From NCBI GenBank assembly GCA_016196755.1, contig JACPXC010000010.1, positions 7,802 to 71,801 of the forward strand: DNA of 64,000 nucleotides, in the 5' to 3' direction. The DNA comes from Elusimicrobiota bacterium. GTDB lineage: Bacteria > Elusimicrobiota > Elusimicrobia > UBA1565. The notes under the pieces were generated by a model. The model worked only from the letters and a program-made list of their open reading frames with translations. It was not told the origin of the DNA and ran no database searches. The position numbers were made by a program, and so were the translations under genes. This document shows, piece after piece, positions 5,239 through 58,118 of this stretch (its first letter is position 1; each line of letters opens with the position of its first letter).

Positions 5239-6212
5239 GCCGGCGTAACCGTCTCGCGGAGCGCCTTGAGCGCGCGCTCGTGCGCCGCGTAGGCGCCCAA
5301 CCCCAGCCCGGCCCAGGCCAGCTCGCGCGCATGGCGCACGAGCCCGAACGCCAATCCGGCGCGGGGAGGGAGCCCGAGGAGCCCGAAGACCAGGGTCTTG
5401 CCGGCCTCCTGGGTACCGACCTTGGCGGGGACCATGAAGAGCAGGGCGTCGATCACGTTCGAGAGGACCTCGATGCGCAGAGCCGTCGTGAGGTCGATCG
5501 GGACCCCGAGGGCGCGGGCGATGAGCCAGGCCTCGCCGAGGTTCCAGGCGTAGCCCCCGGCGAAAAGGACCACCGAGGCCGCCGAGCGCAGAGGGTGGTC
5601 GGCCAGGAGGGCCAGCAGGTCCCCCGGCAGGCGGCTGACCCAGCCTCTCCAGCCCGGGCGCCCTGCGGCGGGTCCGGCCTGGACGCGGCGCCGCCCCCGC
5701 GGCCATAACCAGACGCCTACAGCACCCACGGCGCAGACGGCTAGGGCGGCCCGGGCGGGCGACTCGTAGGGCGCCACGGCGGGGACCGCCCCGCCGAAGG
5801 CCCAGCCCAGCCCCACGCAGATGAAGAGGACCTGGGCCAACCCCTGGGCGAACTTCGCCGCGACGACGCCGTTGACGCGTACCGCCATCGGTTGGGAGTC
5901 GCTCAAGAGGCTGGCGCGCGCGAACTCGCCCGCTATCGTCGCGCTGGGCGTCAGGTAGTTGACACCGTCGCCCATGACGCGGTAGCGCAGGAGGTCTCTC
6001 AGAGAGAAGGAGGCGGCGTGCTCGGGTCGGAAGGCGCAGCGCCAGGCCCAGGCGTTGAACAGGTGCGCCCCGAGCTCCTGGAACAGGATCGGGACGAAAA
6101 GCCAGCCGACCTGGAGGGTCATGGCCAGCGTCTCGGCGGGGTCCAACTGCCAGAGCAGGAAGGCCAGCATCACCAGGCCAGCGGCAAGGACGGCTTTCTT
6201 GACGAGGCTCAT
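5235..6212 (-). CDS. Lysylphosphatidylglycerol synthase TM region-like (UPF0104 / MprF flippase-like) integral membrane protein
   Basis: Multiple TM helices and a polytopic topology typical of the LPG_synthase_TM family. Start ambiguous (ATG at 6212, 6227 or 6257) because the upstream candidates lie in the inverted-repeat element. Stop overlaps the pilin stop convergently. Confidence 0.5.
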   Translation of the reverse strand: MSLVKKAVLAAGLVMLAFLLWQLDPAETLAMTLQVGWLFVPILFQELGAHLFNAWAWRCAFRPEHAASFSLRDLLRYRVMGDGVNYLTPSATIAGEFARASLLSDSQPMAVRVNGVVAAKFAQGLAQVLFICVGLGWAFGGAVPAVAPYESPARAALAVCAVGAVGVWLWPRGRRRVQAGPAAGRPGWRGWVSRLPGDLLALLADHPLRSAASVVLFAGGYAWNLGEAWLIARALGVPIDLTTALRIEVLSNVIDALLFMVPAKVGTQEAGKTLVFGLLGLPPRAGLAFGLVRHARELAWAGLGLGAYAAHERALKALRETVTPA

Positions 6213-48231: not shown

Positions 48232-49356
48232 CTAGCAAATGCCGCCCCGGTATTTGTCGAGGAAGGCTTTCCGGTCGGCCTCGAAGCGTCCCGCGACGAC
48301 GGCCTCCCGGATGCGCGCCATCGTGGCCAGGTTGAAATGGACGTTGTGGATCGTCAGCAGCCGGTAGGCGGCCAGCTCGCCGGCGCGGTAGAGGTGGCAG
48401 AGATAGGCGCGCGTGAAGGTCCGGCAGGTGTAGCAGGCGCAGCCGGGGTCCAGGGGTTCCTGGTCGTTGCGGAACGCTCCGTTCTTGATGTTGAGCCGGC
48501 CTCGGGAGCTCATGATCAGGCCGTTGCGGGCCACCCGGGTCGGCCAGACGCAGTCCATCATATCGACGCCCAGCGCCACGGCGTCCCAAAGGTCCTCGGG
48601 CGTCCCCATGCCCATGAGGTAGCGCGGCAGGCCCTCGGGCAGGGCGTCGAGAGCCTCGGCCAAGGCGGCCCAGGTCTGGGCCTTCTCCTCGCCCACCGAG
48701 AAGCCGCCGATGGCCACGCCGTGCGGGCCGGCCGAGACGATGTGCTCGGCCGCGCGACGGCGCAGGGGGCCGTACACCGAGCCCTGCAGTATGGGGAAGA
48801 ACAGATGGCCGCCGCCGGTGCGCGCGTCCTCGCGCTTGAAGGCCTCCACCGAGCGGTCGGTCCAGCGCATCGTGCGCTCGAGCGCCTTGCGGGCCTGCTC
48901 CTCGGTGCAGGGGTAGGGCGGACACTCGTCTAGCGTCGTCCACATGTCCGAGCCCAGGCGCGCCTGCAGGGCGATCACGCTCTCGGGGGTCAGGAACTGC
49001 GGCGAGCCGTCCAAGTGGGACTTGAAGACCACGCCCTTGTCGTCGACCTCGCGCAGGTCGGCCAGGCTGAAGATCTGGAAGCCCCCGGAGTCGGTGAGGA
49101 TGGCCCCGTCGTAGGCCATGAACTTGGCCAGGCCGCCGTGGGCCTCGATGACGTCGGGGCCGGGACGCAGGCCGAGGTGGTACGAGTTGGCGAGGATGGC
49201 GCGCATCCCGAGCGCCTTGATATCGTCGGCGCCGAGGGCTTTGATCGTGCCCTGGGTGGCCACCGGCATGAAGACCGGCGTCTGGACCGGGCCGTGCAGG
49301 GTCTTGAGCGTCCCTGCTCTGGTCTTTCCGTCGCGGGACTCTATTGTGAAGGTCAT
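48232..49356 (-). CDS. tgt: Queuine tRNA-ribosyltransferase
   Basis: TGT family motifs (TPVFMPVAT; zinc site CxCxxC...H: CACYTCRTFTRAYLCHL). 374 aa. Confidence 0.9.
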   Translation of the reverse strand: MTFTIESRDGKTRAGTLKTLHGPVQTPVFMPVATQGTIKALGADDIKALGMRAILANSYHLGLRPGPDVIEAHGGLAKFMAYDGAILTDSGGFQIFSLADLREVDDKGVVFKSHLDGSPQFLTPESVIALQARLGSDMWTTLDECPPYPCTEEQARKALERTMRWTDRSVEAFKREDARTGGGHLFFPILQGSVYGPLRRRAAEHIVSAGPHGVAIGGFSVGEEKAQTWAALAEALDALPEGLPRYLMGMGTPEDLWDAVALGVDMMDCVWPTRVARNGLIMSSRGRLNIKNGAFRNDQEPLDPGCACYTCRTFTRAYLCHLYRAGELAAYRLLTIHNVHFNLATMARIREAVVAGRFEADRKAFLDKYRGGIC

Positions 49357-49457
49357 TGAATCTTAACGCACACTGTTATACGCGCACGCAGTTAGCCCGT
49401 TCCGCGCGGCGTCTGAACACATTGGGCATGATAGTTAAAGGGACTTGGAGAGCCGGA

Positions 49458-50963
49458 TTATCCGAGGGCTCGTTTAAGTAACCGACTAAGTGCTTCCGAC
49501 AGGCCTGATTCCAGTAGTTCCTCTAACTCGCCCGCCCTATGGTCTAATGCATCCGTGGACTCGGTATACACGAAGCGAAACGCGTCAGTCGTTGTGCGAA
49601 TTCTTTCTCGAATGGATTCGCGCGAAGGCCCTTCGACTGCAATGTCTTCCATTTCGCCAAACGTTGTTACAGCCATTACCCCAGCATCTTTGCCGGCTCC
49701 ATGGATTGAGACAACGAATCGAAGCTGTATCCCATCAAGCCGAAGACGCAGTTGAGTCCAGGCAGTAAAAAATGAGAAATCCGCGAAATGTCCAGCTTCA
49801 TGCGCCGAGTCAATAATCTGCACTCGGAACCAGGAACTCATCGGGTCGGGCGGTTTTTTGCTGTCGACAAGGAAATTAGGCTTATGACCTCGCTCGGCAA
49901 GAATTCTTTTCAACTCACCTGCGCGGCGCTTGCACCATGCGTCAATCCTTCCATGAATCCCAATCGCCCGCGCTTCAAGTGCTTTCTGTCTCTTAGTGAG
50001 CTTTCTGTTCTTTAGCTCGGCCAATTGGTCGGCTAACGTATGAGCGATATCGAGGGAAAGAGCCTTGGACTCGACCTGAGGAGGACTCTCTAACTCACCC
50101 GTCAATCCGGCACTTTCAAGACGGATGAAGAGCTTTATCAACTTGTTTAAGTCACCATCATTGGCCGCATCAAGAGCCTTGATGTAATCCTCTCTATGAA
50201 ATCGGTCGACAACGAGAGGCGCAAACTTATGCCGTTCAAGGACGAGCATGGTCAAAGCGCGGGCTACTCTGCCGTTCCCATCTGCAAAAGGGTGGATTCG
50301 AACGAAAGAGTGGTGCATCCAGGCGGCTTTGATGATTGGATGAATATTGTTGTTGGAGTCGAGAATCTCAAAACAATCCACCAAGTGATCCATCTCAGAG
50401 GCGACATGTTCAGGTGGCGTGTACTCAAGAAGTATGTCATCGCTTCTCAAAACATGGTTGGCCTGGGTTTTCCATGCGCCATGGTCTAGGGCAACATCTA
50501 TGGGGATTCCGCGAGCATCGTGCGCCATGTACGTCGCCTGGGTTCGAGTCAGGGAAACGTGCAATTCTTTAATGAATGACGTTGAAAGTTGCCTCGAGTT
50601 GCGAACAAAGTCCAAAACCATTTCCAAGCTGTCACGCTGAGCTTTAAGCGTTTCAACTGTTCGCTCATCGATTTGTCCGCCGGTTCGCTCGATAACATCT
50701 TTTGAAAATCCCTCCGCCACAAGCGTAAGGGTTAGGCCCCACTCGATATTGTAAAGGCGTTCGATAATCCCAGTTTCAATTGCAAGACGACGCAGCGTTC
50801 GTTGACGAATTCTTACAATTTCTGGCTCGGGCAGGCCGGAGAGATAGGTTGCCCATGCTTGCCGCAATGCATCTAGTGCCGCGATGGAACCGTTTGTTTC
50901 AACCTTGCCTGGATCCAACGCTTGAATGCGTTGCCAAGGGATTGTCTTGCTAGGAGTATTCAT
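49458..50963 (-). CDS. Fic-family protein (FIC domain HPFxDGNGR; N-terminal inhibitory-helix motif TxxxEG) with ~200-aa C-terminal extension, on a low-GC island
   Basis: Catalytic motif HPFADGNGRVAR and upstream TLVAEG ([ST]xxxE[GN]) motif. 501 aa. Gene and its ~100-bp flanks are ~50% GC versus ~70% in the neighbours. Confidence 0.85.
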   Translation of the reverse strand: MNTPSKTIPWQRIQALDPGKVETNGSIAALDALRQAWATYLSGLPEPEIVRIRQRTLRRLAIETGIIERLYNIEWGLTLTLVAEGFSKDVIERTGGQIDERTVETLKAQRDSLEMVLDFVRNSRQLSTSFIKELHVSLTRTQATYMAHDARGIPIDVALDHGAWKTQANHVLRSDDILLEYTPPEHVASEMDHLVDCFEILDSNNNIHPIIKAAWMHHSFVRIHPFADGNGRVARALTMLVLERHKFAPLVVDRFHREDYIKALDAANDGDLNKLIKLFIRLESAGLTGELESPPQVESKALSLDIAHTLADQLAELKNRKLTKRQKALEARAIGIHGRIDAWCKRRAGELKRILAERGHKPNFLVDSKKPPDPMSSWFRVQIIDSAHEAGHFADFSFFTAWTQLRLRLDGIQLRFVVSIHGAGKDAGVMAVTTFGEMEDIAVEGPSRESIRERIRTTTDAFRFVYTESTDALDHRAGELEELLESGLSEALSRLLKRALG

Positions 50964-51081
50964 CGTTGATTGAGCTCGCGATTTTACAAATTATGGCTGC
51001 TTCCCGCCCCCCAGTTCCTATCCAAAAGGTCTAACTGGGTCAATCGGCATGAACCGGAATATAATCCGCTCATGAACTAAT

Positions 51082-52137
51082 TCAGAGGATGAGCATCGCA
51101 TCCCCATAAGAAAAGAGACGATATCGTTTTGCGACGGCTTCCCAATAGGCGTCAAACAGCCGCTCCTTGCCCGCGAAGGCGCACGCCAATAGAAGCGGCG
51201 TCGAGGCCGGCTGGTGAAAGTTGGTCTGCAGGACGTCGACCGCCTTAAACATGTGGCCCGGCAGGATATAGAGGGAGGTCTCCCCTGATAACGGAGCGGC
51301 CGGTCCGACCCCGACCCCTTTGGCGAAAACAGTCTCAAGCGTCCGCGTGGCCGTCGTCCCGACCGCCACGACCCGGCCGCCGCGCGCCTTGGCGGCCTTG
51401 ATAGTCTCCGCGGCCGCGGCGGGCACCTCGTAGCGCTCCGGGAGCATCTCATGGAGGCGGGCGTCCTCGGCGACGATGGGCCGGAATGTGCCGAGCCCCA
51501 CGTGGAGCACGAGTTCGGCGGTAGCCACGCCGCGCGCCGCCAAGGCGGCCAGGACCTCCGCGCTATAGTGGAGGCCGGCCGTAGGCGCGGCCAGGGAGCC
51601 CGGCTCGCGGGCATAGACGGTCTGGTAGCGGGCCTTGTCCTCGGCGCCCGATGCCGGAGCGCCCGAGCGCCGCCGCCGCGAGCGGATGTAGGGCGGCAGG
51701 GGGGGCAGCCCGACGGCCTCCAGCAGGGCCCGGACCTCGGGCGTCGAGAAGCGGACGAGCCAGGTTCCTTCCGGAGTCCGGGACTCGACGTCGGCCGTCA
51801 CGCCGAGGCCGAACTCGAGCCGGACGCCGGGCTTGAGGCCGTTGCACAGGGCGGTCCATAGCCCCGGGGCGGACTCGGCGATGACCAGCAGCTCGGCCGC
51901 GCCGCCGGTGGTCTTGCGCCCGACGAGGCGCGCGGGCACGACCTTCGAGCGGTTGAGGACGACGCAGTCGCCGGGCGAGAGCAGGGAGGGCAACTCGCGG
52001 AAAGTCCGGTGCTCGAGGCCTCCGGCGCGCCGGACCACGAGCAGACGCGAGGCGTCCCGGTCCGCGGCGGGGGCGGCGGCGACCAGCTCCTCGGGGAACT
52101 CGAACTCGTACTCCGAGCGGGGCAGGGGCTCCGTCAC
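51082..52137 (-). CDS. queA: S-adenosylmethionine:tRNA ribosyltransferase-isomerase
   Basis: QueA family sequence (...PPLPPYI...GLHYS...VGTTATRTLE). GTG start at 52137 overlaps the upstream stop (GTGA). The 526-aa track ORF is an artefact. Confidence 0.85.
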   Translation of the reverse strand: MTEPLPRSEYEFEFPEELVAAAPAADRDASRLLVVRRAGGLEHRTFRELPSLLSPGDCVVLNRSKVVPARLVGRKTTGGAAELLVIAESAPGLWTALCNGLKPGVRLEFGLGVTADVESRTPEGTWLVRFSTPEVRALLEAVGLPPLPPYIRSRRRRSGAPASGAEDKARYQTVYAREPGSLAAPTAGLHYSAEVLAALAARGVATAELVLHVGLGTFRPIVAEDARLHEMLPERYEVPAAAAETIKAAKARGGRVVAVGTTATRTLETVFAKGVGVGPAAPLSGETSLYILPGHMFKAVDVLQTNFHQPASTPLLLACAFAGKERLFDAYWEAVAKRYRLFSYGDAMLIL

Positions 52138-53296
52138 TCGCCGGCCTGCTCGAGGTCGGCGCCCGGGAAGTAGAGGGCGAGGATCTGCTCGTAATCGCGG
52201 CCGGCCTCGGCCTGGCCGCGCGCGCCCCACTGGCAGAGGCCGACGCCGTGGCCGTAGCCGCGCCCCTCGAAGTCGAAGCCTTTGCGCCGCTCGCGGATCG
52301 CCTCGAAGCGGACGCTCTTTAAGTCCTTGGTCCCCAGCCAGCGCCGGAACTGGTTCGCGCTGACGCGCGACCAGCCGGCCTCGGTCTTGAGGCGCAGCTC
52401 CTTGAGCCAGCCGGCCCTGCCGCGCCGGCCCTCCCGGACGTCCAGGAGCTGGGCCACGGTCAGCCCGTTGCGGTTGAGCGCGGCGACGATGTCCGTGCGG
52501 GGGAAGTAGGCCTCCCAGCGGTAGTGCGGCGAGGCCTTGCACCAGCGGTCCTTGACCCCGGCCAGGGGCGCGTCGGAGTCGCCGCCCCAGACCTCGGCCG
52601 GGTCGCTGGTATGCCCGCCGCAAGTCGAGTGAAAGTAGACTCTGAGCGGCTTGCCGCGCCAAGACAGGGTCTCGCCGGCGGTGGCGCGCACGGCCTGGCG
52701 GACCCGCTCGGACTCGGTGGTCAGGCCGGTGTAGACCTGGCTCAGCGTGTCGTCGGTCAGGTCGAAGCCGGCGGCCTCGTGCTTGCCGAGGCTGTTGAGC
52801 GCGAAGGTGCGCGAGACCACGGCCTGGGCCTTGAGCGCCTCGAGCGGCCAGTCCGGGCTCATCTCGTGGGGCAGGACGCCGAACAGGTACTCCTCGAGGC
52901 CTAGCTCATCGACCACGGTGAGCGTGCCGTCGGGATTGGGGCGGAAGACCAGGTTGCCGCGGTACTTGCGGGCCCCGATCGACACGAAGTCGTCGGGACC
53001 GCCCGGCAGGAGGCGGGCCGGCCCCTTCATGAGGTGCGGCCCGAAGACCAGCCCGGGCTTCGCCGCCACGCTCTCGGCCTCGACCGGGTAGTCGCGCCCC
53101 GAGACCAGGCTGACCAGCTCGCCGGTGGCCTGGTCGATGGCCTTGAAGGCGCCCGAGGGGCGGAAGGTCGCCGACGGCGCCGAGGCGAGTATGCCCACCG
53201 CGATGATGCGGTCGGCCCGGCGCGCCGCGGAGGATTCGGCGCCGGCCGGAGCTCCCGGCCCCGTTAGGGCCAGGAGCAGCGCCGGGACCAGCGCCC

Positions 53297-53300
<4 letters not shown>
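52134..53300 (-). CDS. SpoIID/LytB-domain protein (amidase enhancer-like), secreted
   Basis: Signal peptide [14 protein letters not shown]. SpoIID-like motifs (AQAVVSRTF; [10 protein letters not shown]). 388 aa. Confidence 0.75.
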
Positions 53301-54318
<1,018 letters not shown>

Positions 54319-54322
<4 letters not shown>

Positions 54323-58041: not shown

Positions 58042-58114
58042 GCGCCTGTAGCTCAACGGATAGAGCAGCGGTCTTCGGAACCGCTGATGGGGGTTCGATT
58101 CCCTCCAGGCGCAC
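58042..58114 (+). tRNA. tRNA-Arg (anticodon TCG)
   Basis: Cloverleaf read by hand: acceptor GCGCCTG/CAGGCGC, D-stem GCTC/GAGC, anticodon stem GCGGT/ACCGC with loop CTTCGGA (anticodon UCG), T-stem GGGGG/CCCTC with TTCGATT loop, discriminator A. No encoded CCA. Confidence 0.85.
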
Positions 58115-58118
58115 CCTA

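Follow-up and report, generated by a model that had tools for sequence, protein, structure and literature searches.

A horizontally acquired Fic gene inserted between queA and tgt in an Elusimicrobiota genome

Class I FicT/FicA and Doc/Phd are toxin-antitoxin modules whose Fido-superfamily toxins are horizontally mobile and often reside in accessory DNA, and glutamate-bearing class II Fic enzymes can de-AMPylate. Here we describe a lone Fic-family gene in a stretch of 64,000 nt from an Elusimicrobiota bacterium (GCA_016196755.1, contig JACPXC010000010.1, positions 7,802-71,801, forward strand; hereafter the window), where it clearly forms a horizontally acquired single-gene insertion between queA and tgt of an Elusimicrobia chromosome. 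Adenylylating Fic enzymes carry the signature HxFx(D/E)GNGRxxR, and class II is defined by an inhibitory helix, (S/T)xxxE(G/N), that precedes the core within one polypeptide (PMC3667792). Sofic-type Fic proteins are toxic AMPylases in phage defence whose activity is controlled by dimerisation (PMC12249575), a mode of control also described for FICD (PMC6826200). According to a 2026 preprint, SoFic both AMPylates and de-AMPylates EF-Tu.

The protein encoded in the window is only 14-24% identical to BT_2513 (3cuc), human FICD/HYPE and SoFic. Its C-terminal half, a long helix followed by an alpha/beta domain, is unrelated to the winged helix-turn-helix of SoFic-type proteins or to the tetratricopeptide repeats of FICD. 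The likeness to SoFic is that of a Fic gene standing alone, accessory and sporadic in its distribution, and AMPylation toxicity is proposed for both. PADLOC returned matches to SoFic (5.7e-25, profile positions 89-258 of 361) and to PDC-S04, each covering the Fic core only. The 101-nt trailer behind the gene is too short for a downstream open reading frame (ORF) like the 47-aa AS1 of the Sofic/AS1 pair, and judged by its sequence the window protein is not a SoFic orthologue. Nor is it Doc-like: the Doc model TIGR01550, which has a cut-off of 38.65 bits, scored it at 12.7, and the window motif reads GNGR. Compared with class I FicT/FicA, VbhT/VbhA and Doc/Phd, the upstream antitoxin ORF is absent here and the inhibitory motif is found in cis; at 501 aa, the protein is also 2.5-4 times longer than the class I FicT/FicA and Doc toxins.

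A single-gene insertion between queA and tgt

The original prediction had described an island of ~1.7 kb with ~50% GC between flanks of ~70%, and recomputation bears this out. In 300-bp sliding windows, GC content falls to 0.49-0.53 from ~49400 to ~51200, with both flanks at 0.65-0.77. The exact insert (49357-51081) has a GC content of 0.501, giving z = -8.0 against same-length windows of the 64 kb (295 others, each of 1725 bp; mean 0.703, sd 0.025, minimum 0.639), so uniform composition across the region is refuted. This is the sole real GC trough in the window; elsewhere 500-bp windows stay at or above 0.58, with one marginal value of 0.58 at 6201. The codon usage of the Fic ORF is clearly foreign, as had been suspected: GC content at third codon positions (GC3) is 0.50 against 0.88-0.97 in seven neighbouring genes, and its codon adaptation index, calculated with those neighbours as the reference, is 0.17 against 0.60-0.81.

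Comparison with relatives that lack the gene places the edges of the insert. An 'Elusimicrobia bacterium' metagenome-assembled genome (MAG) at NCBI encodes a protein 100% identical to the window Tgt, and the closest other Tgt proteins with retrieved contigs are those of L112 (88% identity) and L113 (75%). Both contigs share the order yebC-ruvCAB-spoIID-queA-tgt-yajC-secD and both are empty at queA/tgt, the queA stop overlapping the tgt start as TAATG in L112 and GTGA in L113. The window tracks L112 through the queA TGA and picks up again at the tgt ATG, and the insert is therefore 1725 bp long and base-exact between stop and start codon, in agreement with the boundaries given in the original prediction (tgt start 49356, queA stop 51082). 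In six further, more distant relatives (Tgt 58-64% identical), queA also abuts tgt; the directly adjacent, empty arrangement that had been proposed as a check is thus found. In addition, a separately assembled Logan contig of 11 kb, L006, has the same queA-Fic-tgt arrangement and is 99.96% identical over 2.7 kb spanning both junctions, which argues against a chimera.

The acquisition had been called recent. Its foreign origin stands, and 'recent' holds in a relative sense only: the flanking housekeeping genes of L112, the nearest empty-site relative, are already separated from those of the window by a synonymous divergence (dS) of 0.6-1.2, so that the main argument for recency is the unameliorated GC3. 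For this genome, the event is an ordinary, textbook single-gene horizontal acquisition, useful for annotation. The insert and its surroundings are as follows.

49357..51081, no strand: inserted foreign segment, 1725 bp, placed by GC content and alignment to the empty-site relatives L112 and L113
50964..51081, minus strand: non-coding leader from queA stop to Fic start, 118 nt, GC 0.47
49357..49457, minus strand: non-coding trailer from Fic stop to tgt start, 101 nt, GC 0.53
51082-52137, minus strand: queA, 351 aa, native upstream neighbour (Queuosine_synth 4e-113); its stop codon is one edge of the insert, here called left
48232-49356, minus strand: tgt, 374 aa, native downstream neighbour (Pfam TGT 9e-140); its start codon is the other edge, here called right
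52134-53300, minus strand: SpoIID-domain gene, between ruvB and queA
53297-54322, minus strand: ruvB, in the gene string upstream of queA

Read along the minus strand, the order is ruvB, the SpoIID-domain gene, queA, the Fic ORF, tgt, yajC, secD and secF. Both spacers either arrived with the Fic gene or have decayed. Neither holds a sigma-70-like promoter, their minus (coding) strand has no terminator-like site, and a structured RNA was rejected, as Rfam gave no match in the spacers at E <= 1. No ORF of antitoxin size was found, as the original prediction had it; neither spacer is long enough for one, and the longest in the 118-nt leader has 29 codons and lacks (S/T)xxxE(G/N). The upstream and downstream flanks of eight family loci contain no shared regulatory motif.

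Signs of a dedicated mobility machinery were likewise looked for. The insert, with its single ORF, contains no integrase or recombinase, and the sole tRNA of the window lies far away at 58042-58115. No significant flanking repeats occur in the window, again in line with what had been seen by eye, the best local alignment of upstream and downstream sequence giving z = 1.0 against shuffles; the leader resembles the 5' coding region of tgt weakly, with the same z of 1.0. The spacer pair does contain a 12-nt direct repeat (83%) and a 16-nt inverted repeat (81%), both at chance level, and we rejected a decayed target duplication or terminal repeats at the insert, given that by our estimate ~0.5 such direct pairs are expected by chance. 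The insert thus lacks the integrase, tRNA target and att repeats of an integrase-borne genomic island.

Because the Fic gene is co-oriented with its neighbours and is not evidently equipped with its own promoter or terminator, read-through transcription from queA through the Fic gene to tgt is probable. Read-through into tgt is to be expected as the trailer lacks a terminator-like site on the minus strand, and queA, the Fic gene and tgt would accordingly be co-transcribed. The tgt gene is now preceded by a 101-nt foreign leader, and any translational coupling of queA and tgt would have been lost, since the stop-start overlap has been replaced by a 1.7-kb spacer. The placement between two queuosine genes is probably incidental, because no other family member sits between queA and tgt.

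Gene order around tgt also varies in more distant Elusimicrobia-like contigs. In two of them queA and tgt are separated by an MBL-fold hydrolase gene, alone or together with a PMT_2 glycosyltransferase gene, and in three an H+-pyrophosphatase gene separates tgt from yajC.

L093:1820-5001, L101:208-1101, L093:6113-9081, L097:1994-6051, L102:936-3294 and L096:6107-9755: variable gene order around tgt

A defence-gene hotspot at tgt was considered and rejected, as the inserts of 0.9-4 kb in these relatives (queA/tgt and tgt/yajC) consist of ordinary genes of near-native GC, coding for the H+-pyrophosphatase, MBL-fold hydrolase, PMT_2 glycosyltransferase and a Rce1-like protein.

The Fic protein and its C-terminal domain

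The single gene of the insert encodes a Fic protein of 501 aa with the canonical motif, as had been read from the letters, and its parts can be assigned as follows.

49458..50963, minus strand: Fic-family ORF, 501 aa, ATG start; class II Fic with a family-specific C-terminal domain
50709..50726, minus strand: inhibitory-helix motif, codons T80-L-V-A-E84-G85, fitting (S/T)xxxE(G/N) and supported by the family alignment
50238..50588, minus strand: Fic core, residues 126-242, Pfam PF02661
50259..50294, minus strand: active-site motif H224-PFADGNGRVA-R235, fitting HxFx(D/E)GNGRxxR
49461..50078, minus strand: C-terminal region, residues 296-501, from the structure model and profile searches

Pfam PF02661 matches residues 126-242 with 66.6 bits (cut-off 24; E 3.8e-18), and the protein has the Fic fold, a helical core round the active-site loop together with a beta-hairpin flap. 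The model places the predicted hairpin at residues 144-158 of the core, consistent with the flap on which a target would dock. By sequence, the best solved relatives are BT_2513 (3cuc, 3.6e-21) and FICD (1e-15). The active-site motif, HPFADGNGRVAR, occupies residues 224-235, and the 28 family members all retain its H, P, F, D, G, N, G, R, V and R. From these residues we infer that the protein catalyses AMP transfer.

N-terminal to the core, residues 80-85 read TLVAEG, the segment in which an inhibitory helix of the [ST]xxxE[GN] type had been recognised at the outset, and the protein has the class II sequence pattern. Within the family, E84 is present in 27 of 28 members (the other has Asp) and G85 in all 28. 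A missing antitoxin is what would be expected of such a protein, because a class II Fic bears its own inhibitory helix. In comparison with the homologue P0001, which is 91% identical, the ratio of nonsynonymous to synonymous substitution rates (dN/dS) is 0.043 for the whole ORF and 0.032 for the C-terminal domain; both the ORF and its C-terminal domain are therefore functional and under purifying selection.

The ~200 C-terminal residues, originally described as an extension of unknown function, belong to no family that we could name: profile searches gave no PDB sequence match, there was no convincing Pfam family match in any member, and BFVD gave no match. Modelled alone from 19 sequences, residues 296-501 reached a predicted local distance difference test score (pLDDT) of 92.2. 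In the modelled fold, a helix of ~55-60 residues leads into an antiparallel sheet of five or six strands that is accompanied by two short helices, and a helix of ~25 residues closes the chain. It has no close solved fold, and the nearest ones are protein-binding or dimerising modules rather than enzymes. A C-terminal profile run against 1.84 billion representatives found 349 clusters, 106 of them at E <= 1e-10, and nearly all of these are proteins of ~480-520 aa with the domain at ~300-500, or evident fragments of such proteins. Since the longer matches that we examined (323-723 aa) carry Fic in seven out of seven cases, with the short ones resembling fragments, the domain appears to be confined to Fic proteins of this subfamily. 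Its most likely role is to promote oligomerisation and/or to recognise a partner or signal, by which it would control the release of inhibition.

Distribution and movement of the family

Full-length relatives of ~500 aa with 50-60% identity form more than 120 clusters, their named sources being Elusimicrobia, Deltaproteobacteria, Vicinamibacteria, Rokubacteria and Kofleriaceae. Distant members that are near full length (38-43% identity) occur in Actinobacteria (L007, L008 and L009). These came from a contig scan with the pattern HPF[AS]DGNGR, which gave three useful members among the matches listed; L008 is a cultured isolate, Micromonospora sp. NPDC047670 (NZ_JBIDDA010000008.1).

In addition to the three actinobacterial contexts, ten further genomic contexts were surveyed. 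They have no neighbour in common and the Fic gene stands alone in them, so that a conserved partner or antitoxin gene was rejected; a trio of KaiC-like, coiled-coil and 158-aa proteins is confined to the L001-type locus described below. In most high-GC hosts the gene forms a one-gene trough, with GC of 0.54-0.62 against 0.65-0.73, and the dip coincides with the Fic ORF. In the low-GC host L087, its composition matches that of the host, and two copies are nearly ameliorated, with GC3 of 0.865 in L118 and 0.89 in L009. We therefore rejected the idea that codon choice typical of a toxin keeps the gene intrinsically low in GC. The L118 member (L118:3986-5519) is wedged in an acyl-CoA metabolism operon, with spacers of 15 nt upstream and 13 nt downstream, and its position together with its near-amelioration indicates long-term retention in some hosts.

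Two members are flanked by perfect direct repeats of considerable length.

L087:6919-6982 and L087:8547-8610: 64-nt repeats, also found in the independent assemblies L088 and L089
L091:6949-6983 and L091:8552-8586: 35-nt repeats on a Kofleriaceae contig, also found in the independent assembly L092

The L087 repeats (z = 50 against shuffles) enclose an 18-nt leader, the Fic ORF and a 43-nt trailer, and contain a terminator-like hairpin. Those of L091 (z = 14.5 against shuffles) enclose a 17-nt leader, the Fic ORF and a 33-nt trailer; the repeat is identical with the final 35 nt, TGA included, of the malic-enzyme gene upstream, and the insert starts directly after the stop codon. Neither the window copy nor the other seven loci have such a long repeat. 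As the duplications in these two members enclose the Fic ORF alone, the one-gene unit seems able to move on its own.

Restriction-modification (R-M) units are known to undergo 'insertion with long target duplication', in which low-GC inserts without mobility genes are flanked by variable duplications of more than 30 bp (PMC2853133, Furuta et al. 2010). There, the duplications often span a start or stop codon and insertion is occasionally into operon-like structures (PMC2853133). L087 and L091 resemble these events in their long, variable repeats of host sequence and in the absence of mobility genes, L091 also in a repeat that ends on a stop codon. They differ in that the cargo is a Fic gene instead of an R-M pair, and their repeats are best regarded as putative target duplications. 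The window copy lacks a duplication; what it has in common with L091 is its placement right after an upstream stop codon, within an operon.

Just upstream of the Fic insertion in L087, a 40-codon ORF (L087:6788-6910; MNDQKNVSEGAKASKKLVWETPKMEEVSERVMAQPYIRFT) may encode the precursor of a ribosomally synthesised and post-translationally modified peptide. It lies within a cluster of PqqD, radical-SAM, UbiA and polyprenyl-synthase genes, and its terminator is directly followed by the inserted Fic gene.

Function and competing explanations

The reading that we prefer, and hold to be probable though well short of assured, is that of a horizontally acquired class II Fic protein that is inhibited in cis, controlled by its C-terminal domain, transcribed by read-through and active as a conditional toxin. 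The gene sits precisely at the queA-stop/tgt-start junction of the ruvCAB-spoIID-queA-tgt-yajC-secDF string. Its product would be a cytoplasmic class II Fic enzyme whose nucleotidyl-transfer (AMPylation-type) site carries out ATP-dependent AMPylation of a host protein. Glu84 of TLVAEG would keep this active site off until it is relieved, leaving a separate antitoxin unneeded, and the C-terminal helix and domain may govern the oligomeric state or the binding of a partner, and hence the release of inhibition. Once released, the enzyme could serve as an abortive-infection, defence or stress-dormancy AMPylase acting on an essential host protein. By analogy with other glutamate-bearing class II enzymes, it may also be capable of de-AMPylation.

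The toxin or defence part of this proposal is drawn from the behaviour of the family, which is accessory and lone, has some defence neighbours and includes one AbiEi fusion. At L121:2462-9533, a Fic member stands beside a type I HsdR gene, a DUF4145/PD-T7-4-like gene and a GIY-YIG gene. In a second neighbourhood, L114:1933-3315, the Fic member is 2.7 kb away from a gene that matches the candidate defence protein HEC-03B over its full length (1e-154). P0297, of 723 aa, is a fusion of AbiEi, Fic and the C-terminal domain (PADLOC AbiEi 9e-28; Pfam AbiEi_4/DUF6088 at the N-terminus), in which Fic in effect stands where the AbiEii toxin would be. These family-level facts do no more than hint at such a role, since the majority of contexts are metabolic and the genes around the window copy are purely housekeeping.

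Several observations weigh against the conditional toxin. About seven of the ten family contexts are metabolic rather than defence islands, and the neighbours in the window are all housekeeping genes, none of them related to defence. Class II Fic proteins such as FICD are physiological regulators, not toxins. The likeness to SoFic is limited, with 46.5 bits for the NCBIfam SoFic equivalog NF046030 against a cut-off of 550, and the C-terminal architecture of SoFic is not present in the window protein. With respect to the inhibitory helix, the Ser/Thr position of the motif is variable in the family (T, H, Q and K), and the region is modelled poorly, as a helix at residues 75-83 with a pLDDT of only 50-60. 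Our literature search found no paper on this subfamily. Carriage on phages or plasmids, which the original prediction had suggested looking for, was not borne out: no record with at least 80% query coverage exists in PLSDB or INPHARED, and none was found in IMG/VR.

The leading alternative is a (de)AMPylase with a regulatory role, like FICD or EfFic, which would reversibly modify a specific endogenous protein such as a chaperone or translation factor, be kept for the benefit of that regulation, and owe no more than its spread to horizontal transfer. We regard this as a real possibility, albeit an unlikely one. It fits the closest solved relatives, among them FICD and BT_2513, both of class II with an inhibitory glutamate, as well as the strong purifying selection on the Fic ORF, the predominance of metabolic contexts and the reported action of SoFic on EF-Tu. 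The ameliorated copies of L118 and L009 are also in its favour, the former being tightly embedded in its metabolic operon. What a regulator explains less readily is the patchy distribution of a gene that is absent from the nearest relatives, is found at another locus in each genome and has no constant partner or target gene beside it; the copies near defence genes and the AbiEi fusion argue against it too.

An improbable explanation is that the lone Fic gene of the window is what remains of a larger mobile or defence cassette, whose other genes (for example those of the KaiC-like ATPase, coiled-coil and 158-aa proteins, or an integrase) were deleted after insertion. It is suggested by the closest homologue, P0001, whose locus is not that of the window: in a second Elusimicrobia MAG, of high GC, its gene closes a low-GC block of ~4.5 kb upstream of rplU.

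L002:243-4565 and L001:5184-9506, also in L003: four-gene block with the P0001 Fic gene, just upstream of rplU-rpmA-obg

Apart from Fic, the block encodes a KaiC/AAA_25-like ATPase of 428 aa, a coiled-coil protein of 351 aa with weak SMC/JetC-like matches, and a protein of 158 aa whose ORF overlaps the Fic start by 4 nt. Together the four genes may form a multi-gene system in which this Fic takes part. A remnant would also fit the low-GC spacers of the window, 118 and 101 nt long against 13-43 nt in L087, L091 and L118. Against it, the DNA similarity between the window and P0001 (82%) is confined to the ORF, beginning exactly at the start codon and ending 28 nt before the stop. The three accompanying genes occur in none of the other eight family contexts, and the perfect duplications of L087 and L091 enclose only the Fic ORF.

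A tblastx comparison of L001 with the window shows the Fic gene alone in common. Between the window copy (49458-50963) and that of L001 (8001-9506) dS is 1.27, and for this reason they are probably separate acquisitions from related lower-GC donors and not the outcome of recent exchange between the hosts. Both have a low GC3 (0.50 in the window and 0.59 in L001, against ~0.9 in the hosts); either separate recent acquisition from related low-GC donors accounts for this, or something slows the amelioration of the Fic gene.

That the Fic gene is ancestral at queA/tgt and was lost in the relatives is very improbable. The nearest empty-site relative is admittedly not very close (dS 0.6-1.2), which leaves some room for loss, but the GC3 of 0.50 against ~0.93 and the codon adaptation index of 0.17 are difficult to reconcile with long residence, queA abuts or overlaps tgt in eight relatives across the clade, and independent, precise deletions that restored the stop/start overlap shared by L112 and L113 are unlikely. 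An assembly or binning artefact that joined a low-GC fragment into a high-GC contig is scarcely credible: the source is a metagenome-assembled genome and the step in composition is abrupt, but L006 repeats both junctions, the insert is base-exact between stop and start codons and co-oriented with the operon, and similar one-gene troughs occur in many independent assemblies of other hosts.

A bolder version of the conditional-toxin reading extends it to the whole family. These proteins might constitute a selfish one-gene abortive-infection or addiction module in which the C-terminal domain acts as a sensor or oligomerisation switch of a new type, spreading across phyla as a bare ORF by the long-target-duplication route, with a preference for stop/start junctions inside operons such as that of queA and tgt. 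We offer this as a speculation, and a quite unlikely one.

The subfamily to which the window protein belongs is well conserved in Elusimicrobia, Myxococcota, Acidobacteriota, Rokubacteria and Actinobacteria, where it is annotated merely as 'Fic family protein'. It merits modest follow-up for its C-terminal domain, its mobility as a bare ORF and the R-M-like duplications in two relatives. If the one-protein defence or toxin module proves true, Fic biology would gain a new regulatory domain, and a poorly understood mechanism of insertion would reach beyond R-M systems.

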